NCBI GenBank assembly: GCA_037305845.1
Contig: CP147778.1
Location: 2,112,001 to 2,176,000, forward strand
Source: Candidatus Freyarchaeum deiterrae
Lineage (GTDB): Archaea > Asgardarchaeota > Jordiarchaeia > Jordiarchaeales > Jordiarchaeaceae
Length of the DNA: 64,000 nucleotides
Direction of reading: 5' to 3'
The notes below the pieces were generated by a model. It was not told where the DNA came from, searched no databases, and saw only the letters and a program-made list of their open reading frames with translations. Positions 13,086-63,647 of this stretch are shown piece by piece (position 1 is the stretch's first letter; each line of letters opens with the position of its first letter). The position numbers and the translations under genes were made by a program.

Positions 13086-13970
13086 TTAAAGAATCCCTAT
13101 AACCTTGTGAGCTTGAATCGAGAGCGAAATATCTTTTTTATCAAGATACTTTGACGCAGTCTCCGTGAACTGGAATAATTGTTTTATCGTGGGTTTCTCT
13201 TTTACTTCCCCGAATGGTGTCACAATCTGTATGCATAATGGGCATCCAATCTTGGCTAGTTCCAATGCGTACCATTCAATATTCTCTGATTTCGTCTCAG
13301 AAGTGACTACAACCTTGGCGAATGTCTTCTTTTTCGCATCCATAAAAATTTTCATAGTTTGGAATTCTCTCTCCACAAGAGCGCTCCAGTCGGAGGCAGC
13401 TCCCGCTGTTTCGTCTTTGATATCACAACAGCAATACTCAAAAAGATCAACAATTTTCAATGCGCAATTGGGCAAAGACCCGTTAGTCTCAAGAAAAAGA
13501 TTGTACCCGCCCGATACAAGTAACTCCGAAACTTCCTTTAGGAAATCTGTTTGATGCAAAGGCTCTCCACCAGTAAATGAAATTGAATGAAGATCCGGAG
13601 TTTCAATCCTTTTCAAATATTCGTACAACCTATCTGAGTCTATAGGGTTTGAAAATAGCGTGAACTCTCCGGTGCCTGGGTTTTCTTCCATTCTGAATTG
13701 CTGCATTTCCGGATTTTGAGCTCCAGGCGAGTGGCGTCTTTAGAGCGTACTCCACAAGATGTCGCACCACCTGCAGCCCTCGGTTCCGAATTCTCCTAAG
13801 GCTAGGTTGCAGCCCGCTAATCGAGCGATTCGACGAAAGGATAAAACTCATCCTTCCTATATCTGACGCTTCCCATAACACGAGCCGCTGACATTGCCTC
13901 CTTCCCCTTTACCTCCCTCTTAAGGGATCTGGTAGGAGGAGAACATCTCAGCGACCCATCCCTTAACCAA
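13086..13970 (-). CDS. queE: 7-carboxy-7-deazaguanine synthase QueE (radical SAM), four exons: 13970-13929, 13907-13859, 13828-13761, 13730-13086; 267 aa after predicted splicing
   Basis: Joined exons read MVKGWVAEMFSSYQGEGGNVSGSCYGKRQIFARLAGCNLALGEFGTEGCRWCDSPGAQ...FTGGEPL...LETNG...DIK...QAHK; GAGGTGA RBS before TTG 13970; exons total 804 nt. Confidence 0.92.
13731..13760 (-). other. Predicted BHB-like mRNA intron 3 of queE (30 nt)
   Basis: UGCG-AC^A-UCUU g UGGAG(UACG)CUCUA AAGA-CGCC-AC^U: 9-bp stem, 3 of 4 central pairs; in-frame TAA; removal gives W-C-D-S. Confidence 0.85.
13829..13858 (-). other. Predicted BHB-like mRNA intron 2 of queE (30 nt)
   Basis: AGAU-AU^A-GGAAGGAUGA(GUU)UUAUCCUUUC-GUCG-AA^U: 10-bp intron stem, 3 of 4 central pairs; unspliced frame has TAG and TGA; removal gives Q-I-F-A-R-L-A-G-C. 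Confidence 0.85.
13908..13928 (-). other. Predicted BHB mRNA intron 1 of queE (21 nt)
   Basis: UACC-AG^A-UCCCU(UAAG)AGGGA-GGUA-AA^G: strict 4-bp helix with two 3-nt bulges; contains an in-frame TAA; removal gives Y-Q-G-E-G. Confidence 0.9.
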
Positions 13971-14144
13971 TAACATCACCTCGAAATAGATACAAGCATA
14001 AGGTTTTCTAATTAACTCAGTTTCTGAGTCAAGAAGTCTTTTTTACTTTAAATTTGTTTGGCAGTTGATATAAACTTTTATTCGATAAAGCTTATGTATC
14101 TGTTTCTGCTTTATTGATGTGGATTCTCCCTGAGGCTGATCTTT

Positions 14145-14567
14145 ATGTCTTTAGTAGGACTTTTGATGGGTAAAATGGAGCTTCGGTTGTGCAATGCGAG
14201 GTCTCTTGAGCAAAACAAAATGATGGTTGAAAAACCAGGCTCAAAAAGCTATGTTGAATCAACAGCGGTTGTGCTACTAGGCAAAGATGATATGGGCCAT
14301 TACGGTCTTAAAAACGGAGATACTGTTAAGGTAACAACAAAGTTTGGAACGGTGGTTGTTAAAGCCTACCAAACAGACGAAACAAAAAAGGGAATAGCGC
14401 TCATGCCTAACGGACCGTGGTTCAACTCGATAACCGACCCAGACATAGACGTAACTGGTTTTAACTCCTACTACGTGTTAAACGCCAGTATAGAAACCAC
14501 AAATGAAGAAGTTCTGGATACAGAAAAATTCTTTGAAAAGCTACTGAGAGAGGACGCTCATGAGTGA
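14145..14567 (+). CDS. fwdD: Formylmethanofuran dehydrogenase subunit D-like
   Basis: Molybdopterin dinucleotide-binding fold (GDTVKVTTKFGTVVVKA...MPNGPWFN); overlaps the fwdA start. Confidence 0.8.
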   Translation: MSLVGLLMGKMELRLCNARSLEQNKMMVEKPGSKSYVESTAVVLLGKDDMGHYGLKNGDTVKVTTKFGTVVVKAYQTDETKKGIALMPNGPWFNSITDPDIDVTGFNSYYVLNASIETTNEEVLDTEKFFEKLLREDAHE

Positions 14568-16161
14568 ATCACTTCTTTTAAAGAACGGCTTCGTGTTTGA
14601 CCCCAAAAATAATGTGAATGGGGAACGTATGGATATAGCCGTAAAAAACGGCGTGATAGTTGAATCGGTAAAGGAAAAGGGCAGCAAGGTCGTGGATGCC
14701 CAAGGAAAAATGGTTTTTCCCGGTGGGATAGATATCCACACCCATATTGCCTCTCAGCATGTTAATTTTGGACGAATGCTATACCCCTCAGTATCAGGTA
14801 AGATCCTTCCTACCTCCCCCGAAGTAGGGCTAATGTACGCAAAAATGGGCTACACATTCGCACTTGAAGCCGCAGTGTCACCAACAAAAGCTTTACACAC
14901 TCACCTGGAATTCTCAGATATACCCATATTAGACTACGCGTGTCTGCTAGTCTTAGATTCATACTGGTATCTATTACAAGACGTTAGAAAAAAGTCCGTA
15001 GAAGAAGCTGCCACAATTATATCATGGCTGCTGGAATCGACCAAGACCTATGGAGTCAAACTGGTTGATCCCTTATCAAGTGAAATGTGGAGTTTCAAAA
15101 AAGAAATAACAAGCTTAGAAGAACCCATAAAGCTCCTCGGAGTATCTCCCCTGGATGTCATTCAAACACTAGGAAGAGCAAACGAATACCTAGGACTACC
15201 TCATCCAGTTCACATACATCCCAACGAAGCCGGAAAACCCGGAAACTACGAAACAACCCTCAAAACACTGAAGGCAATGGAAGAAGTAAGCCCCAATAAA
15301 AAACAGAGATCGGTACATTTAGCACACGCTCAATTGCACAGCTACGGGGGAAGCGAAGCAATCGAATCCAAAGCAGACCAAATAGCAGAATACATAAACA
15401 CCCACCCAAACGTGGAAGCAGACATTGGACAGATGGTGCCCCACGAAACAATAAGCCTTTACGCAGACAACCCCTTCCTAACCAGAATCGCGAAAGGAAA
15501 AAACATATTTACCGACCAAGTAGAAATGGAAGCAAGTTTCGGGGCAGCACTAACGGAATACACAATGGACGCAACCGGCAGCGTAATGTGGGCAACTGGT
15601 CTAGAACTAGCACTTAGCATAAAAGACCCATGGCAGATTCAGTTATCCGTAGATCATCCAAACCTAGGAATAATCACAGACTACCCACAAATCATTGCAT
15701 GGCTCATAAGCAAAAAAACCCGGGACGAAGTAAAACTAGAAGTGGATACATCACTGCCCTCTATGGATAGGGAATACTCGCTGTACGAAATAGCAATAAT
15801 AACCCGTGCAAGTCCAGCTCAATCACTTAGCTTACCCAACAAAGGAAACCTCTCAACTGGGTCAGACGCAGATATCGCGGTATACGATTTCAACCCTGAA
15901 ACCCAAGACCCCACAAAGGAAACAGAAGCCCTGATAAAAGCCTTCACCCAAACTTCCTACACTATAAAAAGCGGAGTAATGGTCATGAAGGAAGGAGAAG
16001 TCCTCGTAAAACCAAGAGGAAAAACCTACTGGGCGCACAGAGACGGAATCAGTTTTCCAGAAAAAAGGATAACGGAAATGCAGCGCTACTACTCACTTGA
16101 CATCAACAGCCTAAAAATCCCAAGGGAACTACTCCACAGCTCCCAAGAAGTAACATACTGA
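14560..16161 (+). CDS. fwdA: Formylmethanofuran dehydrogenase subunit A
   Basis: KNGFVFDP, PGGIDIHTH, YAKMGYT, LGLPHPVHIH..GKPGNY, WATGLEL, DHPN, LYEIAIITR. Confidence 0.92.
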   Translation: MSESLLLKNGFVFDPKNNVNGERMDIAVKNGVIVESVKEKGSKVVDAQGKMVFPGGIDIHTHIASQHVNFGRMLYPSVSGKILPTSPEVGLMYAKMGYTFALEAAVSPTKALHTHLEFSDIPILDYACLLVLDSYWYLLQDVRKKSVEEAATIISWLLESTKTYGVKLVDPLSSEMWSFKKEITSLEEPIKLLGVSPLDVIQTLGRANEYLGLPHPVHIHPNEAGKPGNYETTLKTLKAMEEVSPNKKQRSVHLAHAQLHSYGGSEAIESKADQIAEYINTHPNVEADIGQMVPHETISLYADNPFLTRIAKGKNIFTDQVEMEASFGAALTEYTMDATGSVMWATGLELALSIKDPWQIQLSVDHPNLGIITDYPQIIAWLISKKTRDEVKLEVDTSLPSMDREYSLYEIAIITRASPAQSLSLPNKGNLSTGSDADIAVYDFNPETQDPTKETEALIKAFTQTSYTIKSGVMVMKEGEVLVKPRGKTYWAHRDGISFPEKRITEMQRYYSLDINSLKIPRELLHSSQEVTY

Positions 16162-16444
16162 ACAAGAAACAAGACCAAATCTGTAATTTTTAATCAAAAA
16201 AAACTATTTTCCAAAAAGAAACACAAAAATAGAAAAAAAGTGCAACAGGCACTTAAAATTATCTACTTTTTAACAATAGTTTTTGAGTTTCTCTCCCAAT
16301 TAGGATTCGTATCCAAACATAATAAATAAGCTGCTGAAATCAATAAAAACTTAAAAAAAATTTTAAAAAGGAGACATAATCTCCGTAATGGAAGTTAGAA
16401 CGAATTATGCGCACAGTCTTATCAAAATATGAGGTGAATTACGA

Positions 16445-17968
16445 ATGCAATTTTTCCCCTTGTGGACAGAAGAGCAAAAAAATTTTGCCCAAGAATTAGA
16501 GCAATTCGCCACTGAAAACGTACCCCTAGCTGAAGAATTTTTTTGGCAGAGAATATTTCCTGAGGAGATACATGAAAAAGCAAGAAAAAAAGGATACTTC
16601 GGAGCAGGTATCCCACAAGAGTACGGCGGCTTAGGACTAGGAGCCACCGGATCCTGCATAGCTTGCGAACAGTTAAACCGAATGTATACGGTTGGACACC
16701 TCCTAGTAACCAGCTACATTGGAGGGCTCCACCAAATTCTACACAACGGCACCGAGGAACAGAAACAAGAATGGCTAACAAAAATGGCCCAAGGACAGCT
16801 GGGAGCAGTCTGCATAACCGAAGTCTTCGCGGGTTCAGACGCTGCTTCAATAATGACCACCGCTGAAAAAGACGGTGATGAATGGATAATCAACGGTAAA
16901 AAGAGATTCACCACAACCGCAGGACCAGCAGATAGATATCTCGTATACACAAAAACAAGCGATGACCCAGAAGTCAGGAGAAAGAACCAACACCTAACAA
17001 CCTTTGTGGTGGAAAAAGGAACCCCCGGATTCCACCTAGAGAAGGTTAATGCGCTCGTTGGGTTTGACAATCTGCCCAACAGTTACTTGGATTTTGAAGA
17101 TGTTAGAGTGCCTGACTTTAATAGGATTGGTCCCGTTGGTAGTGGTTGGAACACAATGGCAACGGGGCTTAACTTCGAGAGGCTGATCGCTGCCGCTGCA
17201 GCTGTGGGTCCTCTGGAAGACGTTATAAAACTAGTGATCTATTACACCAACAGGCGTGTACAATTCAGATCGACAATATCTGATTTCGAGCACAGCCAGT
17301 TCAAGATTGCTGACATGATAACTAAACATCAAATTGCACGTCTTATAACCTACTACTCTGCGTATATCATGGACCAGGGTCAGATGGCTGCGATTGAATC
17401 AGGCATAGCAAAAATGCTGAGCACCGATTACTGCACGGAGATCGGCGTTGACGCCATCCAACTAACAGGCGGTGACGGTCTCACAAAGTTCTATCCTGTT
17501 GAGAGGCTGATTCGTGAAGGCAAGATAGGTCAGATTGTGGCTGGTACAAATGAGGTTCAGAAGCTCGTCATCTACCGGATGGGCGCTTTAGCCTATTTGA
17601 ATTGGCCCTTCCGACTGCGATGGGACGAAAAATTGGAAACCCCCACACTAAAGCTCGGACATGGACCGTGGTATGGCAAGAAAATAAATGAGGACATAAT
17701 GCTTAAAATCTTAGCGGAAGATTACAGGTGCAACCCTGGACTCTACATGGCTGTAGATGACTGTGAGAAAGAAACCGGTCTTGCGAAGGATAAAATCCTT
17801 GAACTCTGGGCTAAGCTTGAGGAGCAGAAGATGATAGTCACATTCAAAGACAGACGCGGAAATGTCACAATGGCGAAAGCAAACTACACAGGAATCAGAA
17901 AAGCAAACCCACTCGACCACTATAGGTGGTACCCAGACTGGTTCGACATCGAGAAAATGGGCTTCTAA
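16445..17968 (+). CDS. Acyl-CoA dehydrogenase with a C-terminal extension of about 120 aa
   Basis: ITEVFAGSD, NGKKRF, RVQF, GGDG, AGTNEVQK. Confidence 0.92.
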   Translation: MQFFPLWTEEQKNFAQELEQFATENVPLAEEFFWQRIFPEEIHEKARKKGYFGAGIPQEYGGLGLGATGSCIACEQLNRMYTVGHLLVTSYIGGLHQILHNGTEEQKQEWLTKMAQGQLGAVCITEVFAGSDAASIMTTAEKDGDEWIINGKKRFTTTAGPADRYLVYTKTSDDPEVRRKNQHLTTFVVEKGTPGFHLEKVNALVGFDNLPNSYLDFEDVRVPDFNRIGPVGSGWNTMATGLNFERLIAAAAAVGPLEDVIKLVIYYTNRRVQFRSTISDFEHSQFKIADMITKHQIARLITYYSAYIMDQGQMAAIESGIAKMLSTDYCTEIGVDAIQLTGGDGLTKFYPVERLIREGKIGQIVAGTNEVQKLVIYRMGALAYLNWPFRLRWDEKLETPTLKLGHGPWYGKKINEDIMLKILAEDYRCNPGLYMAVDDCEKETGLAKDKILELWAKLEEQKMIVTFKDRRGNVTMAKANYTGIRKANPLDHYRWYPDWFDIEKMGF

Positions 17969-18130
17969 ACACACCTAGTAAAACACTTATTAGAACCCGT
18001 TTCTCTTCTATTTTTTATTTTTCAATTTTGGTTCTTCTTCATTCCATTTTTAAGCCCATTGAGCAAAAGTTTCCAAATTGAATTTTGTTAAAGATTTAAT
18101 TTAGATTTTTAAGAAAGAGGATGTATTATT

Positions 18131-18673
18131 TTATTTGAAGCGGACTTTGCCTACCGAGAAGATGTCTTCGGGTTTTAGTAGTGATATACCCGCCTGTTTT
18201 CCGATTATTTCCACTTGTAGAATCTTCTTTGGATTCTTCAGGTCTACCTTATTCCCGCTTATGTGTTTTGCTAAGCCTTCTATGATCTCTTGGGTATGGT
18301 GCTTGTTGTAGAATCGTTTGTTCACTGTCATCCTCCATGTTTCATTCTCTTTGATGCCTTCTGCAAGTTTTTTTACATTTTCTTCCATTTCTTCAAACTC
18401 TGATGATGACCAGCTATCTATGGGAATATAGTTATATGTGTTCCAAAAATTTTCAGGCTCTTCTCTGCACAACTGAGTGAGCTTTTTAGTTATTTCTCTA
18501 GGATCTAGAGATGTATGAATTAGAAAAATTCCCCTAGCTTGTGATCTTAAAAATTGTGTTTTTTCCTCCCCCACTTTACCCAAAACCTGTGAAACCTCTT
18601 CCTTAGACTCTCTTCTGTTCCGCATCTCAAAGGTAACAAGTAGGTTCGGTTTCTCCATCAAACTTCCTCCCAC
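18131..18673 (-). CDS. THUMP domain RNA-binding protein
   Basis: ETWRMTVNKR, KVDLKNPKKILQVEIIG. Confidence 0.85.
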   Translation of the reverse strand: MGGSLMEKPNLLVTFEMRNRRESKEEVSQVLGKVGEEKTQFLRSQARGIFLIHTSLDPREITKKLTQLCREEPENFWNTYNYIPIDSWSSSEFEEMEENVKKLAEGIKENETWRMTVNKRFYNKHHTQEIIEGLAKHISGNKVDLKNPKKILQVEIIGKQAGISLLKPEDIFSVGKVRFK

Positions 18674-18738
18674 AAGAAATTTGAATCCAAAAAGACCATT
18701 TTAATGGGTGCATCAAAATTAGAGTCTACCAATTCTTA

Positions 18739-19683
18739 TTATATCTTCAGTATTTTCTTTGCGTTTTCTCCAAGGATTAATTTGACTTCCTCTTCGGTGA
18801 ATTTAAGATTGTATTCTTTTCCATCTTTGGGAAGTTTTTTAATCCAATTAACCCATTCATCCAGATTCATCATGGCGTTAGCGTACGGCCAATCGCTGCC
18901 AAAGAGTATCCTATTTTTGAAGGGAACTGCAAAGTTGAGTGGCAGGTCCATAAGCATTCTCAAATTATTCAGGAGAAACCTTGGAGCTCCGCGTGCGAGC
19001 ATTTGACCGGTGAAGGAGATCTCTGTGGAAATGCCTGACTTAAGGGACCCTATTTCCGCTAAAGTAAGAGCTCCGCTTATTCCACCCATGTGAGCAGCGA
19101 TTATTCTTAAGTCTGGAAAAGCTGTTTGAACATCGTCAAGGTGCATTGGATTATTGTATTTAACTTCAAAGGGTAAAAAAATCAAACCACAGTGAGAGAG
19201 CAGTGGCACATCCAGCTCTACACACTTCTCATAGAGCGAAAAACATACCGGGTCATTCGGATAATAACCTGCATCGGGATGAAACTTGAGTCCCCTCATT
19301 CCCCACTCTGTGACTCCCTTTTCAAGTAGTTCAACTGCCTTTTCTCCCCTACGCGGGTCGACGCCAACAAAACTGATGAGTTTATCGGGATACTCATCCG
19401 CAGCCCTGGCATGGTACAAATTCTGCTCTTCTATAGTCATCTTCGCCTTGCCAACCTTCAACTCAAAATCAACAGGCATAATCACCGCTTTATCAACGCC
19501 CGCCTTATCCATATCCTCAACAATCTTACCTGCATCTTGCTGCCAAAAATCCGGTATTGTATCCCTCAATACCTGCTCACTGGGGACGCCCAAATTTTTT
19601 GAGAGAGACTGTGCCAAAAGCTCCCAGTAAATATCAGGATAAAAATCTCTTTGGCTAAGATGACAATGTACATCAACTATCAT
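18739..19683 (-). CDS. Amidohydrolase_2 family metal-dependent hydrolase
   Basis: DVHCH, GLKFHP, HCG, AHMG, LFGSDWP. Confidence 0.92.
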   Translation of the reverse strand: MIVDVHCHLSQRDFYPDIYWELLAQSLSKNLGVPSEQVLRDTIPDFWQQDAGKIVEDMDKAGVDKAVIMPVDFELKVGKAKMTIEEQNLYHARAADEYPDKLISFVGVDPRRGEKAVELLEKGVTEWGMRGLKFHPDAGYYPNDPVCFSLYEKCVELDVPLLSHCGLIFLPFEVKYNNPMHLDDVQTAFPDLRIIAAHMGGISGALTLAEIGSLKSGISTEISFTGQMLARGAPRFLLNNLRMLMDLPLNFAVPFKNRILFGSDWPYANAMMNLDEWVNWIKKLPKDGKEYNLKFTEEEVKLILGENAKKILKI

Positions 19684-20000
19684 AAACTGACATCCAACCT
19701 AGCTACTTTTAATCCTTACGTTATACCACCACTCATAAAAAACCAGTTCGAAATAGAATTGCCATAAACATTTTTCGTATCAAATTAAATCAAAAGAGAA
19801 AAAAATATTCAGCCTTTTAGATTCTCTCAAACAGAGACACTGAAATATTTAAATAATAGTTCGAATAAACACTTTGAGGCACTCATTATGGAGCGAATAT
19901 GTGCTTCATCAAATAAGATATATATACTAAAACACCGAATTCATATAGAAAATTATTAATTGTTGATATCTATTTTAAAGAATTGGAGAGATGGAAAATT

Positions 20001-20837
20001 ATGAAAATAACACATAAAGATGGAAATTTCGAAGGCAAAAATGGAACAAAAATATACTACCAATTATGGAAACCAGACAAAGTAAAAGACGCAATGATAA
20101 TATCACACGGTTATGCAGAGTATTCAGGAAGATACCCTCATGTTGGGGATCACTTCGCCAATGAAGGAATAGCCGTCTACGCCTTGGATCACAGAGGACA
20201 CGGTCTTTCCGAAGGGCACCGTGGACATATAGATAGCTTCGACGATTACCTGGCGGATTTAGACACCTTCTTCGGAATAGTCAAAGGAATGGAGAAGGGA
20301 AAGAAAATTTTTCTTTTGGGGCACAGTATGGGTGGAACAATAGCCATAGCGTACGCACTAAAGCAGCCGAAAAAAATGAACGGCCTAATTCTATCCTCCC
20401 CTTGGTTAAAAACTGCTAGCCCGCCAGATCCAGAACTTGTAAAACAAATTGTGGCGCTTTCACAGAGTAACCCCACACAAGATTTACCAGCCCCAGTGGA
20501 GCCCAAAAACATATCACATGACCCCGTTGTTGTCAATGCTTATGACAAGGATCCCATGGTTTTTAGGACGCTTACTGCTAGATTCATCGTGGAGATCTTC
20601 ACCGCTTGTGAAAATGACATTAAGAACGCGGGTAAGCTGGTGGTTCCAACCCTGCATATGTACGCTGGAGCAGACAAAGTGGTGGATCCTGACGGCAGTA
20701 AAGAATTCGCTAAGGGAGTAAAGGAAAAAGACTATAAAGTGATAGTCTTCCCCGACTTCTACCACGAACTATTTAACGAAGTAGAAAAACAAAAAGTCTT
20801 CGATGCCGTGGACACTTGGCTAAAACCAAGACTCTAA
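20001..20837 (+). CDS. Lysophospholipase / monoacylglycerol lipase (alpha/beta hydrolase)
   Basis: HGYAEYSGRY, DHRGHG, GHSMGG, HELFNE. Confidence 0.92.
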   Translation: MKITHKDGNFEGKNGTKIYYQLWKPDKVKDAMIISHGYAEYSGRYPHVGDHFANEGIAVYALDHRGHGLSEGHRGHIDSFDDYLADLDTFFGIVKGMEKGKKIFLLGHSMGGTIAIAYALKQPKKMNGLILSSPWLKTASPPDPELVKQIVALSQSNPTQDLPAPVEPKNISHDPVVVNAYDKDPMVFRTLTARFIVEIFTACENDIKNAGKLVVPTLHMYAGADKVVDPDGSKEFAKGVKEKDYKVIVFPDFYHELFNEVEKQKVFDAVDTWLKPRL

Positions 20838-21100
20838 ACAAAAACATAATTAGATTAAATTTATTCTCCTCTTTTTCTATTTTAAAAAATTCTAAAACAG
20901 AATAATAATATCTAAAATTATATATAACCTCAACACGCTAACCACAGTAGGCCTACCAACTTCAGAACTAAAATTAGTTGAGACCTCGATAAGGTTCCTC
21001 TTACCATCTTCATAAATCCTATGAAACCTCATAGGTTAATAGTTAAAGAAAGACTTAAATAATTTTAAAATGAATTCTAAAAGATAGGTGGGTAAGCTTT

Positions 21101-31339: not shown

Positions 31340-32677
31340 ATGTCTAGCAAGGATGCAGAAACAATGTTAAAGGATTACGCTGACAAGGCTCGGGCTTCAA
31401 GGACGGGTTTCCAAAAATTCGTGGATGCCTTCACTTTTATTCCCATTACGATATACTTCATTATATCAGTTATACTAAATTATCCCGCAGGAATTCAGCT
31501 TGCTGGTGCAGAATTTGGGCTCAAGTTCCTTTTTAATGGCGTTGTTTTACCCTGGGCATTTGACTTGACTACTTATCAAACGGCAGCTCTACTAAATGCG
31601 TTGTTGTTCGTAAATCCTGTTCCCGCCACTTGGTATGCGGGTCTCTATACCGCAGCAGCTATTAGCATGGTTGTATCCGGAGCATTTTTTATATTCTATT
31701 TCATTTCTAGAGCAGTTGCATACAGGGAAGTCTATGATCTTGATGTTGGTCTTTTGGTCTTCTTTGTGTCTGGAATAGTTATAATGTTTTTATCTCATAC
31801 CATCGGCGCTCTCTACTACTATTACGCGGGTTTCTTGGTATACGCCCTTCTGGCAATTCCAGCCATAATATCAATAGCTGTTAAGAGGCCTTTCACTTTT
31901 CAGTATACCAAAAGACTTGTACTAAAAGAAGTCCAGAAAACGGATGTGTTTAAACGTATTAATTACGCTATCGGCGCTGCCTGGTCAGTAGTTTTCGCTG
32001 CCAACGCTGCTATAAGTTGGATAATACCGACTTTCATAGCCACTGGATGGTTGTGGTTCGCCCTATTTATTACTGTGCCGTTCTTCTTGATCTTTGGTGT
32101 GGCTTTCCAGACTCACTTTCCAGCATGGTACACTCGAAGATCGTTAATAGCACCGTTACAAAAGTCAAAAACCCCCATCAGCCGCATAACTAGAATATTT
32201 GGGGCGCTTATGATACTGTTTGGACTCTTTGGCTTTCTCTGGGGCTTCTTACACATGTCTACTGCAGGTGGGACCCTTAATATAGTTGAAGGTTTCTTGA
32301 TATCTCCTGTGATTGGGCTTGATGAAGCGGTTCTTATTACAGGTGCCGCCCAGATATCTTCTATAATTGTACTCTTGGAAACGATTGTTCCACTAATTCT
32401 AATGGTCGCGGGAGCGGGAGTTATTCTTGGCGGTAAATGGGGTTGGTACCTAGCGATAGGTGGACTAGTGTTTTACATTGGTCTGATATGGTTGGGTTGG
32501 GTTTTCCCTCCAAATATCGGTGTAATGGATTGGATAGGCACGCTTAACTACTTCTATACCACCTTCTCGTTCTATACGCCATACGAGCCGTTCTTCTTCG
32601 CAGCGGTACTATTTTCAGGCGTTTCTGCAACGTTCTTATGCCACCTATTACCCAAGCGAAACCAGTACATACTCTAA
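31340..32677 (+). CDS. Polytopic membrane protein, paralog 1 of a tandem triplet
   Basis: Many TM segments; shares ASRT.FQ.FVD.F, K.PFTFQ, KWGWYL and PKRN.Y.L with the next two genes. Confidence 0.8.
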   Translation: MSSKDAETMLKDYADKARASRTGFQKFVDAFTFIPITIYFIISVILNYPAGIQLAGAEFGLKFLFNGVVLPWAFDLTTYQTAALLNALLFVNPVPATWYAGLYTAAAISMVVSGAFFIFYFISRAVAYREVYDLDVGLLVFFVSGIVIMFLSHTIGALYYYYAGFLVYALLAIPAIISIAVKRPFTFQYTKRLVLKEVQKTDVFKRINYAIGAAWSVVFAANAAISWIIPTFIATGWLWFALFITVPFFLIFGVAFQTHFPAWYTRRSLIAPLQKSKTPISRITRIFGALMILFGLFGFLWGFLHMSTAGGTLNIVEGFLISPVIGLDEAVLITGAAQISSIIVLLETIVPLILMVAGAGVILGGKWGWYLAIGGLVFYIGLIWLGWVFPPNIGVMDWIGTLNYFYTTFSFYTPYEPFFFAAVLFSGVSATFLCHLLPKRNQYIL

Positions 32678-32836
32678 GAAAAATTCACAATACCCTATTA
32701 ACACCGGTACATCACTAGATTCGGAAGCTTCGGAATGCTTACTAACACCTCTCCCCTACTTTTTTTTATCACGCTGTTTCTCTACCATCACTATCTGCTC
32801 AAATAAATTTATAATTAAGTTTAGAAGAATAAACTT

Positions 32837-34069
32837 ATGTCTGCTACCGATGACGTAGACAAAATGATGAAGAAATACCGTGAAAAGGCTCTGGCTTCAA
32901 GAACAAGGTTTCAAAGATTCGTAGATATATTCACGATGGTTCCAATGCCTACCTATTTTGTACTGATGGCTCTGGGCCTTTTTTTAACAGGAATAAGACT
33001 TACCTCCCTCGACCTCACTCTGAGGTCCTATGTAATATTTAGTGGCTCTGATTTTCTGGCTGGTTTCCAGCAAAGCATTTTGATACATCTTTGGTTCATA
33101 CCCTCCATACCAGCCGTATGGAATACCTCACTCCTAGCTCCTGCGTCCATAAGCGTGTTAGTAGGTCTCGCCCTTTTTACAGTATATTTCGTTTCTAGAC
33201 GCTTAGCCTACAAAAAAACCTATTACATTGATTTGGGCTTTTTAGCCTTCTTTTTGCTCGGATTATTATTGATGTTCGTGTCTCCGAGCTTATTTGCTAC
33301 ACTCTACTACTATTACCCTGCTACCCTGCTATTTACTCTGCTGACAATTCCTTCCGCATTCTCAATATTTGCTAAGAAACCCTTTACCTTTCAACACGTT
33401 GAAAGAGTTTATCCCCCCTCAGTTAGGGAGATGGATATCTACAGAAAAATCCACTACCGAATCTCAACCTTCTTTGTTATAGTATTCGCTATCAGCGCTG
33501 CAGTTTTTTATTTCCGATTCTACCTTCCCACAGCTTCACCAGTGTTCACCGTCCTATTCTTCGTACCATTCTACTTCTTGGCGCTAGGTTGGGCTTTTAT
33601 GATTCATTTTGTAGGATGGTACCGCCGATTAGTACTCAAAACGCCCTTAGAAAAACCGTCAAGCCCTCTACCCCACCTAGTAACATTAGTCGGCGCATTA
33701 CTGATAATCTACGGGCAGTTAACCCTTATAGTTGGACTTTGGATGTCAACATCCGTAACATTCACAACCTTATCGTATGTTGTTGCCACAATTCTCATGG
33801 TCTCTGGAACCGGAATAATTATAGTTAGAAAGTGGGGCTGGTACCTCACAATTTTTGGGCTTCTTTCACATATTGTCCTGTTCTGGGCGGTTTGGGCTGC
33901 TGCGTCTTACAGTTTACCGGATTTGTTGGCCTCAATGGGTAGCTTCTACATTACCCTTTCCTTCTATCCCCCTACTGATATCCTGTTATTCCTAGCGTTA
34001 ATTTTTTCGAGCATTTCCTCGCTGTTACTATGCTACTTATTCCCAAAAAGGAACTACTACCTGCTCTAG
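32837..34069 (+). CDS. Polytopic membrane protein, paralog 2
   Basis: Collinear and highly similar to 34308-35537. Confidence 0.8.
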   Translation: MSATDDVDKMMKKYREKALASRTRFQRFVDIFTMVPMPTYFVLMALGLFLTGIRLTSLDLTLRSYVIFSGSDFLAGFQQSILIHLWFIPSIPAVWNTSLLAPASISVLVGLALFTVYFVSRRLAYKKTYYIDLGFLAFFLLGLLLMFVSPSLFATLYYYYPATLLFTLLTIPSAFSIFAKKPFTFQHVERVYPPSVREMDIYRKIHYRISTFFVIVFAISAAVFYFRFYLPTASPVFTVLFFVPFYFLALGWAFMIHFVGWYRRLVLKTPLEKPSSPLPHLVTLVGALLIIYGQLTLIVGLWMSTSVTFTTLSYVVATILMVSGTGIIIVRKWGWYLTIFGLLSHIVLFWAVWAAASYSLPDLLASMGSFYITLSFYPPTDILLFLALIFSSISSLLLCYLFPKRNYYLL

Positions 34070-34307
34070 AAAAAATAATAACTACTTTTTATTTTTAGGT
34101 TGGGGTTACTAGTCAGGTTTTTATCTAATCAAAATTTCAATAAAGAAAATGAACAGTATAGCAGGGCCAGAAACTACCCCGCTACTAATCCACAATACTT
34201 GAGCTATTGCCTTAATAGTAAAGTATATATATAATAAAAACAAACGAATTAAATTAAATATTATAATTATACTAATATAAATCAACGTTTAAGGGAAGCA
34301 CTAATTT

Positions 34308-35537
34308 ATGCCTGCTGAAAGCTTGGACAAAATGATGAAGAATTACCGCGAAAAGGCTTTGGCTTCAAGAACGAGATTCCAACGATTTGTAGATATCTTC
34401 GCAATGGTCCCCATAGCGACTTACTTTATAGTGATGTTTACCGGAGTTTTTACAACAGGAGCTAGACTTACCTCCCTTGACCTTACCTCGAGGTTCTTTG
34501 TGATGTTTAGCAGTTCTAACTTTTTGGCGGGTTTCCTGCAAAGCATTTTGATACATCTGTGGTTTATACCAACCACCCCCGCTATGTGGAACCCCTCCCT
34601 CTTGACTCCAGCGGCTATCAGCGTGTTAGTAGGTTTCGCATTATTTATAGTGTATTTCATTTCTAGAGGCTTAGCATATAAGCAAATCTTTTACACAGAT
34701 CTCGGTTTTTTGGCCTTCTTTTTGCTAGGATTAACTTTAATGTTCGTGGTTCCGAGCTTATTTACCACACTCTACTACTATTACCCCGCTACCTTGGTAT
34801 TCCTCCTATTGGCGATTCCCTCCCTGCTCTCAATAGTTGCTAAGAAACCCTTCACTTTCCAGCGCGCTGAAAGAGTTTACCCCTCATCCATAAAGGAACT
34901 AGATATTTACAAAAAAATCCATTACAGGATTGCTACCTTCTTTGCTGTAGTTTTCGTTATTAGCGCCGCAGTTTTTTATTTCCGGTTTTACATTCCTACC
35001 GCTTCACCAGTATTCACCGCCCTATTCTTCATACCGTTTTACTTTTTATTCCTAGCTTGGGCTTTCATGACTCATTTTCCAGGGTGGTACAGCCGAAGAT
35101 CACTGAAAACACCACTACAAAAGCCGCAAAACCCTCTACCACGCTTAGTAAAAATAGGTGGCGCATTACTGATAATCTACGGACTGTTGACCCTTGTAGC
35201 TGGTCTCTGGATGTCAGCACCCATAACATTCACAGCCTTAACGTGCGTTGTTGCCATAATTCTCATGGTCTCTGGAATCGGAATAATTCTCGTTAGGAAG
35301 TGGGGCTGGTACCTCACGATGGGCGGGCTTCTTTCTCATATTGTTCTGTTCTGGTTGGCTTGGGTTGCTATACCTTACAGTTTACCGGATTGGTTTTCCT
35401 CTATTGGTAGCTTCTATGTCACCCTTTCCTTCTATCCCCCTACTGACATCCTGTTATTCCTAGCGTTAATCTTTTCAGGCATTTCCTTGCTGTTCCTGTG
35501 CTACTTATTCCCAAAAAGAAACTACTACCTACTCTAG
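34308..35537 (+). CDS. Polytopic membrane protein, paralog 3
   Basis: Collinear and highly similar to 32837-34069. Confidence 0.8.
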   Translation: MPAESLDKMMKNYREKALASRTRFQRFVDIFAMVPIATYFIVMFTGVFTTGARLTSLDLTSRFFVMFSSSNFLAGFLQSILIHLWFIPTTPAMWNPSLLTPAAISVLVGFALFIVYFISRGLAYKQIFYTDLGFLAFFLLGLTLMFVVPSLFTTLYYYYPATLVFLLLAIPSLLSIVAKKPFTFQRAERVYPSSIKELDIYKKIHYRIATFFAVVFVISAAVFYFRFYIPTASPVFTALFFIPFYFLFLAWAFMTHFPGWYSRRSLKTPLQKPQNPLPRLVKIGGALLIIYGLLTLVAGLWMSAPITFTALTCVVAIILMVSGIGIILVRKWGWYLTMGGLLSHIVLFWLAWVAIPYSLPDWFSSIGSFYVTLSFYPPTDILLFLALIFSGISLLFLCYLFPKRNYYLL

Positions 35538-56960: not shown

Positions 56961-57069
56961 CCCCATTTCCCCCTTTTTAGATTCCCACTAACAGAGTTAA
57001 AGATGATAGTGTGTTATAAGGGGCTAATAGCAAATGTTTATATCTTGAGGAGCCTCTTGATTTTTTATC

Positions 57070-57945
57070 ATGTATCCTCTACCTTTTGATTATTTTTCGC
57101 CAAAAAGTCTCGGCGAAGCTTTGGAGCTTTACGGGGATGGCTCAGAGATTAAAATACTAGCAGGTGGGCAGAGCCTGATACCTTCTCTGAAATTGAGATT
57201 GGTTTCTTTGAAAGGCGTGGTGGATATAACGGGCATCAAAGAACTTGATTATGTACGTAAAGATGAAGACTTGCTTAGGATAGGGGCGTTAACAACTACT
57301 GCCATCTTGGAAAGTGATGAAATAATCGCATCTTCAATGCCCATTCTAAAGGAGGCTGCGGCTCAAATTGCTGACCCCTTAGTAAGGAATAGGGGCACAG
57401 TGGGCGGCAATTTGTGTTATCCTGATCCAGTGTATGATTTGCCAGCGGTGATGCTCGCCTTAAACGCGTCAATGGTTGCGGCTAGCAAAAAGGGAACCAG
57501 AAGGATTAGCGCTGATTCGTTCTTCATAGACTCATTTAAGACCGCATTGAAGCCTGGAGAGATTCTTACCGAAGTCGAGGTGCCGTTGCAGCTGGGCAGG
57601 TTTGGGGGCGCATATTGCAAAGTGAAGAAGGGCTCGGGAGGCTATTCTATTGCTGGCGTCGCGTCCTGTCTTTCAGTTGCGGATGATGATGGTGCCATTT
57701 CTGGATGCCGGATCGGATTGACTGCTGTTGGTCCTAAGGCTCTAAGAGCTGAGAAAGCAGAACAAGCTCTTCTGAAAAGAGTGCCAACGCCATCTACGTT
57801 GGATAAAGCTGCTGCATTGGCTGTAAAGGCTTCAAAGCCGTCTTCTGACTCCAATGCGTCAGAGGGTTATAGGCGCAAGGTGTTATACAAGCTTGTAAAA
57901 GACTCGGTAGAAGCAGCTTATGGCAGGGCAACCCAAGTGAGGTGA
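57070..57945 (+). CDS. Xanthine oxidase-family FAD subunit (CoxM/CutB-like)
   Basis: LAGGQSLIP, VRNRGTVGGN. Confidence 0.92.
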   Translation: MYPLPFDYFSPKSLGEALELYGDGSEIKILAGGQSLIPSLKLRLVSLKGVVDITGIKELDYVRKDEDLLRIGALTTTAILESDEIIASSMPILKEAAAQIADPLVRNRGTVGGNLCYPDPVYDLPAVMLALNASMVAASKKGTRRISADSFFIDSFKTALKPGEILTEVEVPLQLGRFGGAYCKVKKGSGGYSIAGVASCLSVADDDGAISGCRIGLTAVGPKALRAEKAEQALLKRVPTPSTLDKAAALAVKASKPSSDSNASEGYRRKVLYKLVKDSVEAAYGRATQVR

Positions 57946-57951
57946 CGGGAA

Positions 57952-58425
57952 ATGAAGATAAATTTTAGGGTAAATGGAGAAGATGTTGAACTTGATGTGG
58001 AGCCGAGGAGGCTTCTTGTGAGTGTACTTAGGGATGAGCTTGGGCTCACTGGAACGCATATGGGTTGTGATACTACGAATTGCGGTGCATGTGCTGTCTT
58101 GGTGGATGGCAAGGTAATCAAGTCGTGTACGATGCTTGCGGTTCAGGCGGATGGCAAGGAGATACTTACCATAGAGGGTTTGGCGAAAGAGGGCGAGTTG
58201 CACCCTGTTCAGCGTGCTTTTTTGGAGAAGCATGGATTGCAGTGCGGTTTCTGCACGCCGGGAATGATAATGACGTCTTACTGGCTTCTGAGCCAAAACA
58301 AGGACCAAGATGAGGAGGAGATAAAGAGGCTGCTCTCGGGAAACCTGTGCAGGTGCACGGGTTACCATGGAATTGTAGAGTCTGTAAAATACGCTAGGAT
58401 GCTTATGGAGAAAGAGGGGAGGTAA
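57952..58425 (+). CDS. Xanthine oxidase-family 2Fe-2S subunit (CoxS/CutC-like)
   Basis: [27 protein letters not shown]. Confidence 0.95.
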
Positions 58426-58429
58426 TGCT

Positions 58430-60457
58430 ATGGGAGGACCTGAATTATTTGTTAGGGGCGCAGGGCGATATGTGGATGATATTAAGTTGCCACACATGCT
58501 GTATATGATGGTAGCTAGGAGCCCTTACGCGAGGGCAAGGGTACTTTCTGTGAAGGGCGGTATTAATAGGGATGATCTGAAGGCGCTTGTAGGTGGGTTT
58601 GGAGAGGGCGGGCGCTCAGATGTTGATCCTGTTTTGCTGCATCCTGTTTTTGCTCAGGATACTGTGAATTATGTCGGTCAGCCGGTTGCTGCGGTGTTTG
58701 CGGATGACCGTTACGTTGCTAGAGACAAGCTGGATGAAGTAGAAGTTGAATATGAGCAGTTGAAGCCTATTATGACTATAGACGACTCTCTTTCCAGCGA
58801 GCCTATTCATGCTGGTACTAAATCAAACATCATACGACAGTCATGGATGGGTGCCGATTTTGAGGATCCCAAGTCTCCTGTTGTACTGGAAGACGAGTTT
58901 ACGATAGGAAGGGTTGTGAATAACCCTCTCGAACCGAGAGGAATAATCGCGGATTATGATGGCTCCAGATTGACCGTTTACATCTCTACACAGGCGGTAT
59001 TCAGCATAAAGGCTGGGTTGTGCAGTGTCCTGAAGCTGGATAGTTCCAAGGTTAGGGTTTTGCAGGCAGACACAGGAGGCGCGTTCGGGTCGAAAAGTGC
59101 GCTATATCCTGAATACGTCATGGCAGCTTACGCGGCAATGAAATACAAGCAACCAGTGAAGTGGATTGAGAGCCGTAGCGAACACCTAGCCGCTAGTCAA
59201 CCAGGCAGAGGCATGCGTGGCAAGATGAAGATATTTGCCGACAAAGATGGAAAGGTTGACGCGTTGCGTGGCGAGGTAACCACAGACGCTGGTGCTTTTG
59301 GCGGGACTTCTGGAACCTCTTCGGCGTTTTTCGTGGCACTGCAGTTGACAGGACCTTATGGAATAGGAAAGGCGTATGTGCAAGCAACTTCCGTTATGAC
59401 GAACAAGCCTCCTCAAGGTCCCTACCGGGGCGCGGGGAGACCGGAGGCTGCTTTCTTCATGGAAAGAATGATGGACCTGCTTGCCGACGAGCTTGGAAAA
59501 GAAGCAGATGAAGTACGCCTCATTAACACCACCACAGAGAGCTTCAAGTCGCCACTTGGCCTACAGATTGAAGCGTCGCGTCCGTTCTATGAGAATGCTG
59601 TTGCCGAGCTAAAGTACAGGGAAAAATCAAAAAGCAGCAAGGCAGGGCTGGGCTTTTTCGTTCTGTTTCCCGCAGCCTTCATGGGGGAGACTGCTAGAAT
59701 AAAAATTAAGGACGGCAAGGTAGACGTTTGGCTCGGAGGAAACCAACACGGCCAGGCACACACTGCCTTTGTAAAGAGATTACTCAATGAAGAACTCGGA
59801 ATCCCCAACGACTTGGTAACGCTAAACAACGGAGACACTGACATGCTTGAGAAAGGCGTCGGAACCTGGGGAAGCAGATCCGCAATCGTGGGCGGGGCAG
59901 CCGTTGTCACCGCAGCCAGAAAATTGAAGGAGCAAGTAGAAAGCGAGCACGGAAGCTACACGACAGAAGCCCTGCTAGAAGGAGATTATAATGCAGAAGT
60001 TTTCTACGACTACAGAGCACAGTTAAACTCCTTCGGCGCAGCCCTCGCAACAGTAAGCATCAATAAGTATGGCATGGTCAACGTAAAAGAGTCTGCAGCT
60101 TGTTACGATGTGGGTAGGGCACTCACCCCCGGCGTAGTAGAAAGCCAGATAATCGGGGGAACTATTCAGGGAATCGGCCAAGTATTGTATGAGAGCGTTG
60201 TGCACGATTCGGAAGGCAGACTGCTGACAAAAAGCCTCTTCGACGCAGGCTTACCCGTAGCCGAAAACATGCCAGAATTCCAAGTCAAGATAATCGAAAA
60301 CCCCTCTTCACTACCTCATGGCGCTAAAGGCCTAGGCGAGGCCCCAACAATAGGCACACCGGTCGCCCTTGTGAGAGCCATCGAAAGAATATCCGGCAAA
60401 AGAATAACGCATACGCCAGTCAAACCTGAAGAATTAATTGAAGATTCAGACACATAA
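58430..60457 (+). CDS. Xanthine oxidase-family molybdopterin subunit (aldehyde oxidoreductase-like)
   Basis: GGAFGSK, PYRGAGRPEA, HGQ, GTWGSRS, AKGLGE. Confidence 0.92.
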   Translation: MGGPELFVRGAGRYVDDIKLPHMLYMMVARSPYARARVLSVKGGINRDDLKALVGGFGEGGRSDVDPVLLHPVFAQDTVNYVGQPVAAVFADDRYVARDKLDEVEVEYEQLKPIMTIDDSLSSEPIHAGTKSNIIRQSWMGADFEDPKSPVVLEDEFTIGRVVNNPLEPRGIIADYDGSRLTVYISTQAVFSIKAGLCSVLKLDSSKVRVLQADTGGAFGSKSALYPEYVMAAYAAMKYKQPVKWIESRSEHLAASQPGRGMRGKMKIFADKDGKVDALRGEVTTDAGAFGGTSGTSSAFFVALQLTGPYGIGKAYVQATSVMTNKPPQGPYRGAGRPEAAFFMERMMDLLADELGKEADEVRLINTTTESFKSPLGLQIEASRPFYENAVAELKYREKSKSSKAGLGFFVLFPAAFMGETARIKIKDGKVDVWLGGNQHGQAHTAFVKRLLNEELGIPNDLVTLNNGDTDMLEKGVGTWGSRSAIVGGAAVVTAARKLKEQVESEHGSYTTEALLEGDYNAEVFYDYRAQLNSFGAALATVSINKYGMVNVKESAACYDVGRALTPGVVESQIIGGTIQGIGQVLYESVVHDSEGRLLTKSLFDAGLPVAENMPEFQVKIIENPSSLPHGAKGLGEAPTIGTPVALVRAIERISGKRITHTPVKPEELIEDSDT

Positions 60458-60609
60458 CTTACACTTTTTTAACAGCAAAGAGATCTAGGCACGCCAAGGC
60501 TGCAAGGCTAAACTAATTATTATTCAACTTTTGATTAGTTGTTTCAAATTATCGCTAGGACGGGGATGCTCAATTCACCTTTCTCCACGTTCAATGAAAA
60601 GCATCCTAG

Positions 60610-61413
60610 GTGAGTGGCATGATTACAGACTTGAAAATTTTGAATGAAGCGGCGCATCTATTGGAAAATGGAACTAGACTTGCGTTGTGCACGGTTATCG
60701 AGAAAAGGGGTTCAGGGCCTAGAGATGTTGGTGCGAAAATGATTGTTGGGGAAGACGAAAAGACTTATGGGACTATTGGGGGAGGTGCCCTTGAGAGAGC
60801 TTTGGTCAACGAGTGCATGAAAGCTTTGGAAGAAGGCAAATCAAGAAGAGTTACTTTCAACATGACGAGGGAAAAGAAAGAGGGAATGGTTGAAACGGGT
60901 CTGATATGCGGAGGCGAATTAACTGTGTTTGTTGACGTATTAGAACCAGATTTAAGGTTAATAATAGTGGGTTCTGGTCATGTAGCGTTGCCCTTAGCGA
61001 GACTAGCCGAAATTGTAGGATTTAAAACACTCATAGTTGATGATGACATCGACCTAGCCAACAAAGAGCGATTTCCAATGGCTGAAAGAATCATTACTGG
61101 CGATTTTGCCAAAATATTGAATGAGCTTGATGTAGGCTCCAACGACTCTGTCGTCATTGCTCACGGCGAACCTGAACATGATTACAAGGCATTAGAGAAG
61201 ATGATTGAAAAAAAACCCGCCTACATTGGACTGCTTGGAAGCCGGACGAAAGTTGCGATACTCGTTCAGAGGCTTCGAAAGCAAGGAATCAGCGAGGCAC
61301 AATTGAAGATATTACACGCACCCTTAGGCTTGGACATTGGGGCTCAGACCCCTGAAGAAATCGGAATAAGCGTACTCGCCGAGATTATCCAGAGCAAAAG
61401 AAAAAGAACATGA
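60610..61413 (+). CDS. xdhC: XdhC/CoxF molybdenum cofactor insertion chaperone
   Basis: GSGPR..GAKM, GTIGGG, CGG, YIGLLGS, PLGLDIGAQTPEEI. Confidence 0.93.
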   Translation: MSGMITDLKILNEAAHLLENGTRLALCTVIEKRGSGPRDVGAKMIVGEDEKTYGTIGGGALERALVNECMKALEEGKSRRVTFNMTREKKEGMVETGLICGGELTVFVDVLEPDLRLIIVGSGHVALPLARLAEIVGFKTLIVDDDIDLANKERFPMAERIITGDFAKILNELDVGSNDSVVIAHGEPEHDYKALEKMIEKKPAYIGLLGSRTKVAILVQRLRKQGISEAQLKILHAPLGLDIGAQTPEEIGISVLAEIIQSKRKRT

Positions 61414-61450
61414 ACATAGCACGAATCACTTACTTGAGTATTTACGGTTC

Positions 61451-62098
61451 TCAAATGCCATAGCTACCAGTTTTTATTAGACTGCGAGCGCGAGCCAAGT
61501 CTTCAGGAGTGTCTATGTCCATAATGGACCACTCCGGTGCCTCGATTGTGAACAGTTTGTCAGCATGCCTATTAACAACGTCTCGTATTGTCTCGGGGTT
61601 TTTCAAAGCTAGTATTTCGCCGAAAAGCTCCTTATGAAAGAGCAGCGGATGACCTTTCTTCCCCTTATGTATTGGACTCACAATCCATGCTTTGTCTACA
61701 TTGTTCTCCATCTGTTCAATCATAACGTTCAAAAAGTTCTTGTCAAGAATAGGTTCGTCTCCAAGAACCAAAAATGCAGCGTCAACATGACGCATTAGTC
61801 GCAGTCCCTTTTGAAAAGATGAAATCATCCCCTGTTCATAGTCATCATTTATAACCGTCTTAATATCTTCTAACCATGGCTTTATGGCTTCGATTATCTG
61901 CTGAGGTTCGTGTCCTAACACAATTACTTTTTCATCTGCGTCCGTAGCTGCTATTGCATCCAAAACATTCCCTATCAAAGTATCATCATTCAGACGCAGC
62001 AGGAGCTTGTTTTGCCCCATCCTTTCGGATTTACCGGCTGCTAGAACAATTGCTGCGGTAATTATCATCAACACCTCCCATGCCGAAAATAGCGCCAT
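61451..62098 (-). CDS. mocA: Molybdenum cofactor cytidylyltransferase (MocA-like)
   Basis: LAAGKSERMG.NKLL, GMISS, LGDEP, GHP, DIDTPED; true start probably the second Met. Confidence 0.85.
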   Translation of the reverse strand: MALFSAWEVLMIITAAIVLAAGKSERMGQNKLLLRLNDDTLIGNVLDAIAATDADEKVIVLGHEPQQIIEAIKPWLEDIKTVINDDYEQGMISSFQKGLRLMRHVDAAFLVLGDEPILDKNFLNVMIEQMENNVDKAWIVSPIHKGKKGHPLLFHKELFGEILALKNPETIRDVVNRHADKLFTIEAPEWSIMDIDTPEDLARARSLIKTGSYGI

Positions 62099-62253
62099 CC
62101 TCTCTGGGGTTGCACCAAACGTCGTGACTATTGCTTCCTAGTTGATTGCACCAAAATATAACCATATTCAAGTATATAACTATGCTCAACGAAAATCGCG
62201 GCAAAAAAATAAAAACAAAAAAGAGAAGGGGAAAGCCCCGAAACTAAATTCCT

Positions 62254-63647
62254 TCACACTATTTTACTCGTCTTCCAAGTGCCCAAGGCACGACCGAGCT
62301 CCTTGTGATCCTCAGCATACTTCTCCAACGGTATACCCTGCACAGAAGCGTCGATAGCCTGACGAAAAGAAGTAGCACCAGCACGAGGACCATCAGGATG
62401 CGCATGAATAGCGCCACCAACACCTACTATGAAATCCTTACCGAGATCCGCCATAATCTGAGGAACAATCTGAACAATGACACCACCAGCAGGCATAGGC
62501 AAAGTAGGCTTCAAATGATAGAACGGAAACGTCAACTCACGCCAAACCTGCAGATAAGTCTCCTTCATGAAAGGAGCTTTTCTGGAGGCTCGGGAACTAC
62601 TTGCACTCAATGTGCGAAATCAGTCTCCCGAATTCCTATTCCAAAGGGCGCTGGGTTAAAATTTTAACAGGGAAGTCCTGTTAAATATACTTCCATGTCA
62701 GCGCCGGCTAGTCTGCAGAATTTTCCTAGTATGAGTCTGGCGTCTACTCCGTATTCTGGTGATGCGTAGTGTACTGCTGCATAGTCTGTGTGTGCTAAAA
62801 CTGGTACTTTTATGCTGGGGTCTTCTGCTAGGTCTCTGAATGTTTCGTATCCTGTTGTGATGATGTTGACCATTAGTGCGTTTGCTCCTAGGTCTATGGC
62901 TTTTTCTGCTAGTTCTAGTGTTTTTTTGGGTCGGTCGGTTATGTTGACTGTGTAGAGTGTTTTTTCTCCTTTTTCTTCGTCTGCTTTGTCGATTGCTTCC
63001 ATGAATTTTACTACCCGGTCTTCTACTCGGTTTAGTTCCATGTCTGCTAGTAGTTCATCGTCTTTGATGAAGTCTACTCCGCCTGCTGCGACTTCGTATG
63101 CTAGGTCTGCTCCTATTTCGCAGGGTGAGTAGACGCAGGGTTTTATCATGTTGTTTAGTATGGGTCGGTCTTTTACTCCCAGTATCTCTCTTACTCCTTT
63201 TATTCCGAATTTTGGTCCTTTGAATCCGCTTACCCATTTTTTGGGGAATTGGAGGTCCAGTAGTTTTATTTTTCCGGCAGCGGAGAGGTTTCCGACTACT
63301 GTGCTCAGGAGTACGGGTAGGTTGGGGTAGCCGAGGTTGGTTATGGGGTACGCGATTTTTATTATCCAGTGTCTTTCTTCTGTTTTTGGTAGCTGCCATT
63401 GGTGTGGTGGGATTTCGAATACTGCTGTTACTCGGGCTGCGTGCAGTCTTCTGACTTCGGGTGTTTCTTTGGGTACGGGTGTCCAGGTTCCGGTGCTTTG
63501 TTCTAGGGCTGCTGCTACGCCCATTGTGTATCCGTCTAGCCATGAGGGCTGGGTTGTGTAGTATGTGGCTATTATGTTTTCTTCGGGGTCTATGCCTTCG
63601 GGTAGTGCTTCCATTGATGTTAATAATTCATAATCTTTTTCGCCCAA
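62254..63647 (-). CDS. RuBisCO-like protein (form IV), three exons: 63647-62687, 62656-62639, 62579-62254; 434 aa after predicted splicing
   Basis: EQSTGTW, GPKFG, IKP, IKDDE, LAH, then joined RLAGADMEVYPAPFGKAPF..PMPAGG..GGAIHAHPDG..AG; exons total 1305 nt; GGAGG before TTG 63647. Confidence 0.9.
62580..62638 (-). other. Predicted BHB mRNA intron B of the RuBisCO-like gene (59 nt)
   Basis: UUGG-AA^U-AGG..UUCGGGA..GCAC(AUUGA)GUGC..UCCCGAG-CCU-CCAG-AA^A; long intron hairpin; removal repairs a frameshift and gives F-G-K-A-P-F. Confidence 0.85.
62657..62686 (-). other. Predicted BHB mRNA intron A of the RuBisCO-like gene (30 nt)
   Basis: AAGU-AU^A-UUUAACAGG(ACUUC)CCUGUUAAA-AUUU-UA^A: strict BHB with a 9-bp intron stem; in-frame TAA; removal gives V-Y-P-A-P. 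Confidence 0.9.

Follow-up and report, generated by a model that had tools for sequence, protein, structure and literature searches.

Within the 64,000-nt window of the Candidatus Freyarchaeum deiterrae genome that we analysed (contig CP147778.1; coordinates without a prefix are positions in this window), two genes on the minus strand, queE and a gene for a RuBisCO-like protein, are interrupted by three (A, B and C) and two (D and E) short inserts, respectively. The host genome is a single contig of 3,576,204 bases with a GC content of 40.7%, and its nearest protein matches are named Freyarchaeota and Jordarchaeia, in keeping with an earlier note on this DNA that had taken the host for an Asgard archaeon. 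A complete 3.58-Mbp genome of Freyarchaeum deiteterre has been described, with introns in 92-95% of its tRNA genes (PMC11291895). ARAGORN, run on the whole host genome, returned only 17 tRNAs, as expected if most tRNA genes are multiply interrupted. The motif of concern below is the bulge-helix-bulge (BHB), a helix of 4 bp flanked by two staggered bulges of 3 nt, one at each exon-intron border, with G-U pairs allowed. The features of the two genes are as follows.

13929..13979, minus strand: queE exon 1, ending in SSYQ.
13908..13928, minus strand: predicted intron A, 21 nt (20-26 nt in relatives), a strict BHB; in frame, containing a stop.
13859..13907, minus strand: queE exon 2, 49 nt (GEGG...KRQI).
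13829..13858, minus strand: predicted intron B, 30 nt, two stops; outer A.G mismatch in the helix.
13761..13828, minus strand: queE exon 3, 68 nt, with all three cysteines of the Cx12Cx2C iron-sulfur motif.
13731..13760, minus strand: predicted intron C, 30 nt, with one stop and, at the outer end of the helix, a U.C mismatch.
13086..13730, minus strand: queE exon 4, of which gene callers give just a 206-aa piece from 13706.
12400..12864, minus strand: queD (6-carboxytetrahydropterin synthase), an intact neighbour.
62687..63647, minus strand: RuBisCO-like exon 1, form IV; closest models MtnW-like enolase, below cut-off.
62657..62686, minus strand: predicted intron D, a strict BHB of 30 nt with one stop, interrupting the Tyr codon of VYPAP.
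62639..62656, minus strand: RuBisCO-like exon 2, 18 nt.
62580..62638, minus strand: predicted intron E, 59 nt, frameshifting; splits a lysine codon; only in the host genome.
62254..62579, minus strand: RuBisCO-like exon 3, the C-terminal 108 residues, under purifying selection.

The assignment of queE is a probable one: it is supported by the adjoining intact queD gene, the Cx12Cx2C motif is restored by splicing and the homologs are named QueE, but NCBIfam scores for QueE all fall below the cut-off, that of an intron-free ortholog included. Candidate start codons are GTG at 13979, ATG at 13976 and TTG at 13970, of which the TTG is most likely the start, judging by the spacing of the ribosome-binding site. 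Removal of the three inserts gives a protein of 270 aa in which the junctions recreate SSYQGEG, KRQIF.R and C.WCDS, the motifs of intron-free homologs. Against a profile hidden Markov model (HMM) built from such homologs, the spliced QueE scores 398 bits with end-to-end cover, whereas the unspliced sequence scores 10 bits and partly spliced or alternative-register versions score 47-89 bits, all of them stopping early. Similarly, the spliced RuBisCO-like protein is 434 aa long, its junctions recreate VYPAPFGKA, again a motif of intron-free homologs, and it scores 668 bits end to end against its own HMM, compared with 497-511 bits and early stops for the unspliced, partial and alternative-register forms. 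In an alignment with a form III RuBisCO, the lysine split by intron E matches the loop-6 lysine. All five inserts were found at the sizes first reported (21, 30, 30, 30 and 59 nt), and the proposal that frame and motif are restored in all of them by cutting each bulge after its second base held up, given the full-length HMM cover in that register.

Two further observations concern the RuBisCO-like gene. Between 62254 and 63700 its sense strand is A/C-rich before the introns and T/G-rich after them, with a sharp change near the introns. In another genome (G021, a 2.8-Mb single contig, probably Atabeyarchaeia; locus L038) the gene is frameshifted at a different site, and removal of a 22-nt BHB insert (0.7 kcal/mol) abolishes the frameshift.

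Four central pairs are formed in A, D and E and three in B and C. The earlier description of three strict motifs and two with a central mismatch was thus right in its count of pairs, but the mismatched bases (A.G in B, U.C in C) occupy the outer end of the helix and not its centre. The inner stems contain 5, 10, 4, 9 and 3 contiguous pairs in A to E, and forcing the BHB costs 0.3, 0.0, 3.2, 2.3 and 5.6 kcal/mol, respectively; at random sites of equal lengths, 3/3000, 1/3000 and 0/3000 showed the same features. A scan with a loose BHB pattern was dropped as evidence for boundaries since it gave many chance matches, and the boundaries were for this reason set by homology. For every one of the five introns, and not, as had been thought, for B alone, there is a second register one base away; the register chosen for B was nevertheless correct, as all 4 bp of its helix are paired in the sister family, where the insert is 18-23 nt long. 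The helix of C is perfect in most relatives, where the insert measures 15-32 nt. When translated, the alternative registers of B, C and E yield no full-length product, and the 28-nt register of D leads to a stop.

Other classes of intron do not fit these inserts. They start with A or U and end in AA, AC or UA rather than having the GU-AG borders of spliceosomal introns, they are 21-59 nt long whereas the core of a group I or II ribozyme comprises some hundreds of bases, and they are too short for the open reading frame of a homing endonuclease. An Rfam search of the window gave no match. As originally proposed, the inserts have no common sequence; they do not resemble other sites either, and no source or copy of them was found in the host genome, two relatives or viral contigs, nor were target-site duplications or shared terminal sequences found at the inserts. 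They may descend from mobile BHB introns that carried a homing endonuclease.

The queE inserts are conserved in position. Introns A, B and C occur at identical codons in all six same-genus and all five sister-family genomes (11/11 Jordiarchaeia), and further contigs likewise carry them, such that two families, with more than 11 independent assemblies between them, show the same positions; since all of these genomes are related, the counts are not independent trials. Four outgroup genomes, which represent three other Asgard families, lack all three. Their lengths in the 11 genomes vary (A 20-26, B 18-30 and C 15-30 nt), cover all three frames and are often frame-breaking, and in the inner stems the sequence varies across relatives while the pairing is kept. 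Intron D occurs in one other genome of the genus, whereas three more and the sister family lack it; a D-less allele is 91% identical to a D-bearing one with a single 30-base gap, and the junction is exact to the base. In the D helix a synonymous change in the exon is matched by a change in the intron, turning an A-U into a G-C pair, and the D stem shows compensatory changes among relatives.

The exons that cannot be translated without splicing are under purifying selection, with ratios of nonsynonymous to synonymous substitution rates (dN/dS) of 0.09-0.29. In queE exons 1-3 the ratio is 0.10-0.22, and in the RuBisCO-like exon downstream of E it is 0.09-0.26, similar to exon 1. Relaxed selection, which would have spoken for true pseudogenes, was not seen, and the suggestion that apparent pseudogenes of this genome are intact is borne out. 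Taken together, conservation and selection exclude assembly error and long-dead pseudogenes.

To look beyond the window, a purpose-built protein-to-DNA aligner that allows insertions without bias towards the motif was run with two reference proteomes, those of G011 (1,418,269 bases), which we take to be an Odinarchaeum-like genome, and of 1.4 Mb of the Jordarchaeales genome G006. In the host, a BHB was present at 13 of the 24 well-anchored frame-breaking insertions, against 0/15 harmless in-frame insertions and 3/389 random placements; the corresponding figures for frame-breaking insertions were 12/19 in G006 and 6/20 in G011 itself. A motif-aware census made 20 calls in the host (one of them doubtful) as opposed to 0 and 1 from frame-shifted decoys, 11 in G006 (decoys 0 and 1) and 6 in G011 (decoys 1 and 0). 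With the other four introns of the window, those of alba and mvhD and two more, the host has no fewer than 27 introns, spread over about 22 genes; these figures are a lower bound. Within the window, the two proteomes revealed no further introns, though they cover only part of its genes.

Named by their motifs, the intron-bearing host genes include cbf5, rtcB, gatE, ahcY (three introns), porA, ppsA, ychF, moaE and hypD. The introns are typically 27-34 nt long, their junctions fall in phases 0/1/2 in the proportion 10/18/9, and many split conserved motifs, sites that the method itself favours. The host cbf5 intron serves as a positive control, lying directly after the first base of the catalytic Asp codon, as does the intron described in PMC2738675. 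An intrinsic genome scan combining the BHB with a codon model, free of homology, did not clearly separate the real frame from decoy frames and was dropped; its candidates near 16417-16479 of the window were rejected, the acyl-CoA dehydrogenase gene at 16445 being complete.

Several of these genes deserve separate mention. In ahcY (G000:C1:1877066-1876203, minus strand) the three introns measure 56, 29 and 191 nt, and the 56- and 191-nt introns start with similar AT-rich stems and are possibly remnants of larger mobile introns. In G011 an actin gene with the motif IAPPERMYSVWIGGSIL is split by a 34-nt frameshifting BHB intron (G011:C1:535634-535667, plus strand, in L080), and five further genes there, one for a GatA-like amidase, carry BHB introns. 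In G006, motifs of EF-2, IF2 and a DnaG-like primase are split by BHB introns of 29-34 nt (C1 445963-445935, 806573-806601 and 972112-972079).

The host encodes the machinery that such introns would call for, namely one RtcB and two EndA subunits, of which alpha has the Tyr-His-Lys triad and beta lacks the His. An alpha-beta EndA with an L1 loop linked to relaxed motifs has been reported for Asgard archaea (PMC5829648); by analogy, the host enzyme would be able to cut relaxed motifs, a breadth of specificity drawn from that study. The rtcB gene itself carries, near L196 and within its PDAH motif, a frameshifting BHB insert of 29 nt (G000:C1:1452824-1452796, minus strand); the gene reads through only with the insert removed, and the insert is absent in G006 and G011. 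Therefore, the RtcB ligase would be needed for its own mRNA.

Based on these observations, we infer, with a probability of roughly 0.9, that the five inserts are BHB introns in pre-mRNA which are removed in the cell by EndA cleavage and RtcB ligation. Each insert would form a local hairpin closed by pairing with the end of the upstream exon, such that two staggered bulges of 3 nt are left unpaired. The bulges would then be cut, each behind its second base, by EndA, the heterotetrameric tRNA splicing endonuclease, and RtcB would join the exons, giving full-length QueE after three rounds of cutting and joining and the RuBisCO-like protein after two. Given that the positions are conserved, that presence and absence are exact to the base, that the stems covary, that the exons are under selection, that the census exceeds its decoys and that EndA and RtcB are both encoded, we believe that the central claim of the earlier note, EndA/RtcB-type introns in multi-intron mRNAs of ordinary genes, is well founded, and that this Asgard host very probably splices many of its mRNAs.

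Some findings weigh against this interpretation. A spliced queE junction was sought in JGI contigs and none was found, no spliced transcript came to light for any of the other junctions of the two genes, and protein clusters holding host QueE or RuBisCO-like fragments contain no full-length member. Intron E has no ortholog, its first inner stem is short, and its 57-nt register is slightly lower in energy than the 59-nt one. At the D site, the relatives L197, L221 and L223 hold a 33-nt insert with the same stem and three extra bases on the 3' side, from which the strict rule would remove 30 nt, leaving a stop in two of them and an extra residue in one; either EndA may cut a relaxed 3' site in these variants or the copies may be defective. 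Lastly, the genomes compared are relatives rather than independent samples.

The privacy of E to the host and its competing 57-nt register, together with the 33-nt D variants that break the strict rule, would also suit a scenario in which the old introns are spliced but the host RuBisCO-like gene is dying, the young intron E (or the 33-nt D of relatives) being spliced badly or in the wrong register. We regard this as improbable, as the consensus bulges of E (AA^U, AA^A) arise in the 59-nt register only and exon 3 is as constrained as exon 1, even if a very recent loss would not yet show. That both genes are pseudogenes or assembly errors with BHB shapes formed by chance draws some credit from the frequency of loose BHB-like matches and from the failure of the homology-free scan to beat its decoys, but the recurrence of the same positions in independent assemblies from two families and the purifying selection have already largely refuted it, and the same type of insert sits in the essential genes rtcB and gatE and, in relatives, in EF-2, IF2 and primase motifs; we give it next to no weight.

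A ribosome might instead skip the inserts by translational bypassing, frameshifting or stop read-through, leaving the RNA uncut. Each insert is a hairpin, most with a stop, like known bypass signals such as that of T4 gene 60. Yet at a given site the insert length varies through all three frames from one relative to another with the BHB preserved, half of the junctions are located within codons, and matched take-off and landing repeats are lacking (just 0-3 nt), all of which makes skipping very improbable. Scarcely credible, too, is removal of the inserts from the DNA of some cells, or their origin as transposon footprints: close relatives do have exactly intron-free alleles, but the inserts lack target-site duplications and a common terminal sequence, they are retained in assemblies of the host genome, and their geometry, G-U pairs included, is that of an RNA endonuclease substrate. 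We therefore retain BHB splicing by EndA and RtcB as the best explanation of the five inserts.

Several database records that might have passed for spliced products were rejected. QueE records of 262-264 aa have out-of-frame N-termini that read through intron C, and matches to an intron-free alba junction were long genomic contigs of an intron-free Jordarchaeales allele. Logan contig L218 lacks the 30-nt alba intron exactly and is otherwise about 99.6% identical to an intron-bearing metagenome-assembled genome; we did not count it as RNA evidence because it runs about 300 bases upstream of the probable promoter, and it may represent a genomic intron-free alba allele. For alba of L218/L219, other records have the TAG of the intron annotated as Gln, so that the intron has given rise to a spurious alternative genetic code.

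Elsewhere in the window, three tandem paralogous open reading frames of 445, 410 and 409 aa with similar N-termini lie at 31340-35537 on the plus strand and have no match in the two reference proteomes. The non-coding segment 26930-27420 recurs in genomes of the same genus as several similar copies, part of which lie at contig ends, and may be a small mobile or repeated element.

Apart from cbf5, the protein genes of archaea are assumed to lack introns, whereas in the lineage closest to eukaryotes dozens of genes per genome, some with four exons, appear to depend on splicing. The Freyarchaeia-like QueE sequences returned from a collection of 5.8 billion proteins are all either truncated or wrong at the N-terminus; the gene content and metabolism of Asgard archaea are therefore misread. 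It is conceivable, although we lean against it, that several Asgard classes run genome-wide mRNA splicing by the tRNA machinery and that the capacity for splicing serves as a point of control: the ligase gene rtcB, the RNA-modification genes cbf5 and queE and other core genes would depend on EndA/RtcB to be expressed, and this single pair of enzymes could gate RNA maturation and metabolism together. The bearing on the origin of intron-rich eukaryotic genes that the earlier note saw in these introns is unsupported, because BHB chemistry differs from that of the spliceosome and the patchy distribution points to lineage-specific gains and losses; BHB mRNA introns alone do not explain spliceosomal introns.

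The chemistry of EndA and RtcB, and its use on cbf5 mRNA, are established, and the cbf5 pre-mRNA intron was reportedly also treated by Watanabe in 2002 and Yoshinari in 2006. For Desulfurococcales and Sulfolobales this intron has been supported by cDNA proof, and introns in other genes have been predicted but are unconfirmed (Yokobori 2009, PMC2738675). A BHB intron has also been reported in the 5' untranslated region of Haloferax HVO_1309, with cbf5 named as the sole other mRNA example (PMC7714728, published in 2020). Our literature search, which left most subscription journals outside its coverage, found no report of multi-intron, genome-wide or Asgard BHB mRNA introns. The mechanism is thus already known from cbf5, while for the multi-intron, genome-wide Asgard set no published report was found.

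The introns described here resemble that of cbf5 in being short, in lying within a coding region and often at a catalytic motif, in the cut after the second bulge base, in their often relaxed motif, in their patchy gain and loss and in the hetero-oligomeric EndA of the host, whose own cbf5 intron is at the same site. In contrast to crenarchaeal cbf5, with one intron in one gene proven by cDNA, they belong to another lineage, number at least 27 in about 22 genes, come as three and two to a gene with exons down to 18 nt, and are predicted from sequence. Haloferax HVO_1309 is likewise an EndA-processed mRNA, but a single case in an untranslated region. The non-canonical tRNA introns of Freyarchaeia and Atabeyarchaeia (PMC11291895; bioRxiv 10.64898/2026.10.13.758758) share lineage, motif and size range with ours, as well as repeated gains and little common sequence; both papers deal with tRNA genes only, and no mention of mRNA introns was found in them. 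By analogy rather than shown homology, the set also resembles a eukaryotic system. Ire1-dependent splicing of HAC1/XBP1 mRNA is a protein-only process of cutting and ligation, with RtcB as the ligase in animals and a 26-nt frameshifting intron in XBP1. Ire1 splicing differs in endonuclease and motif, and has one regulated target.

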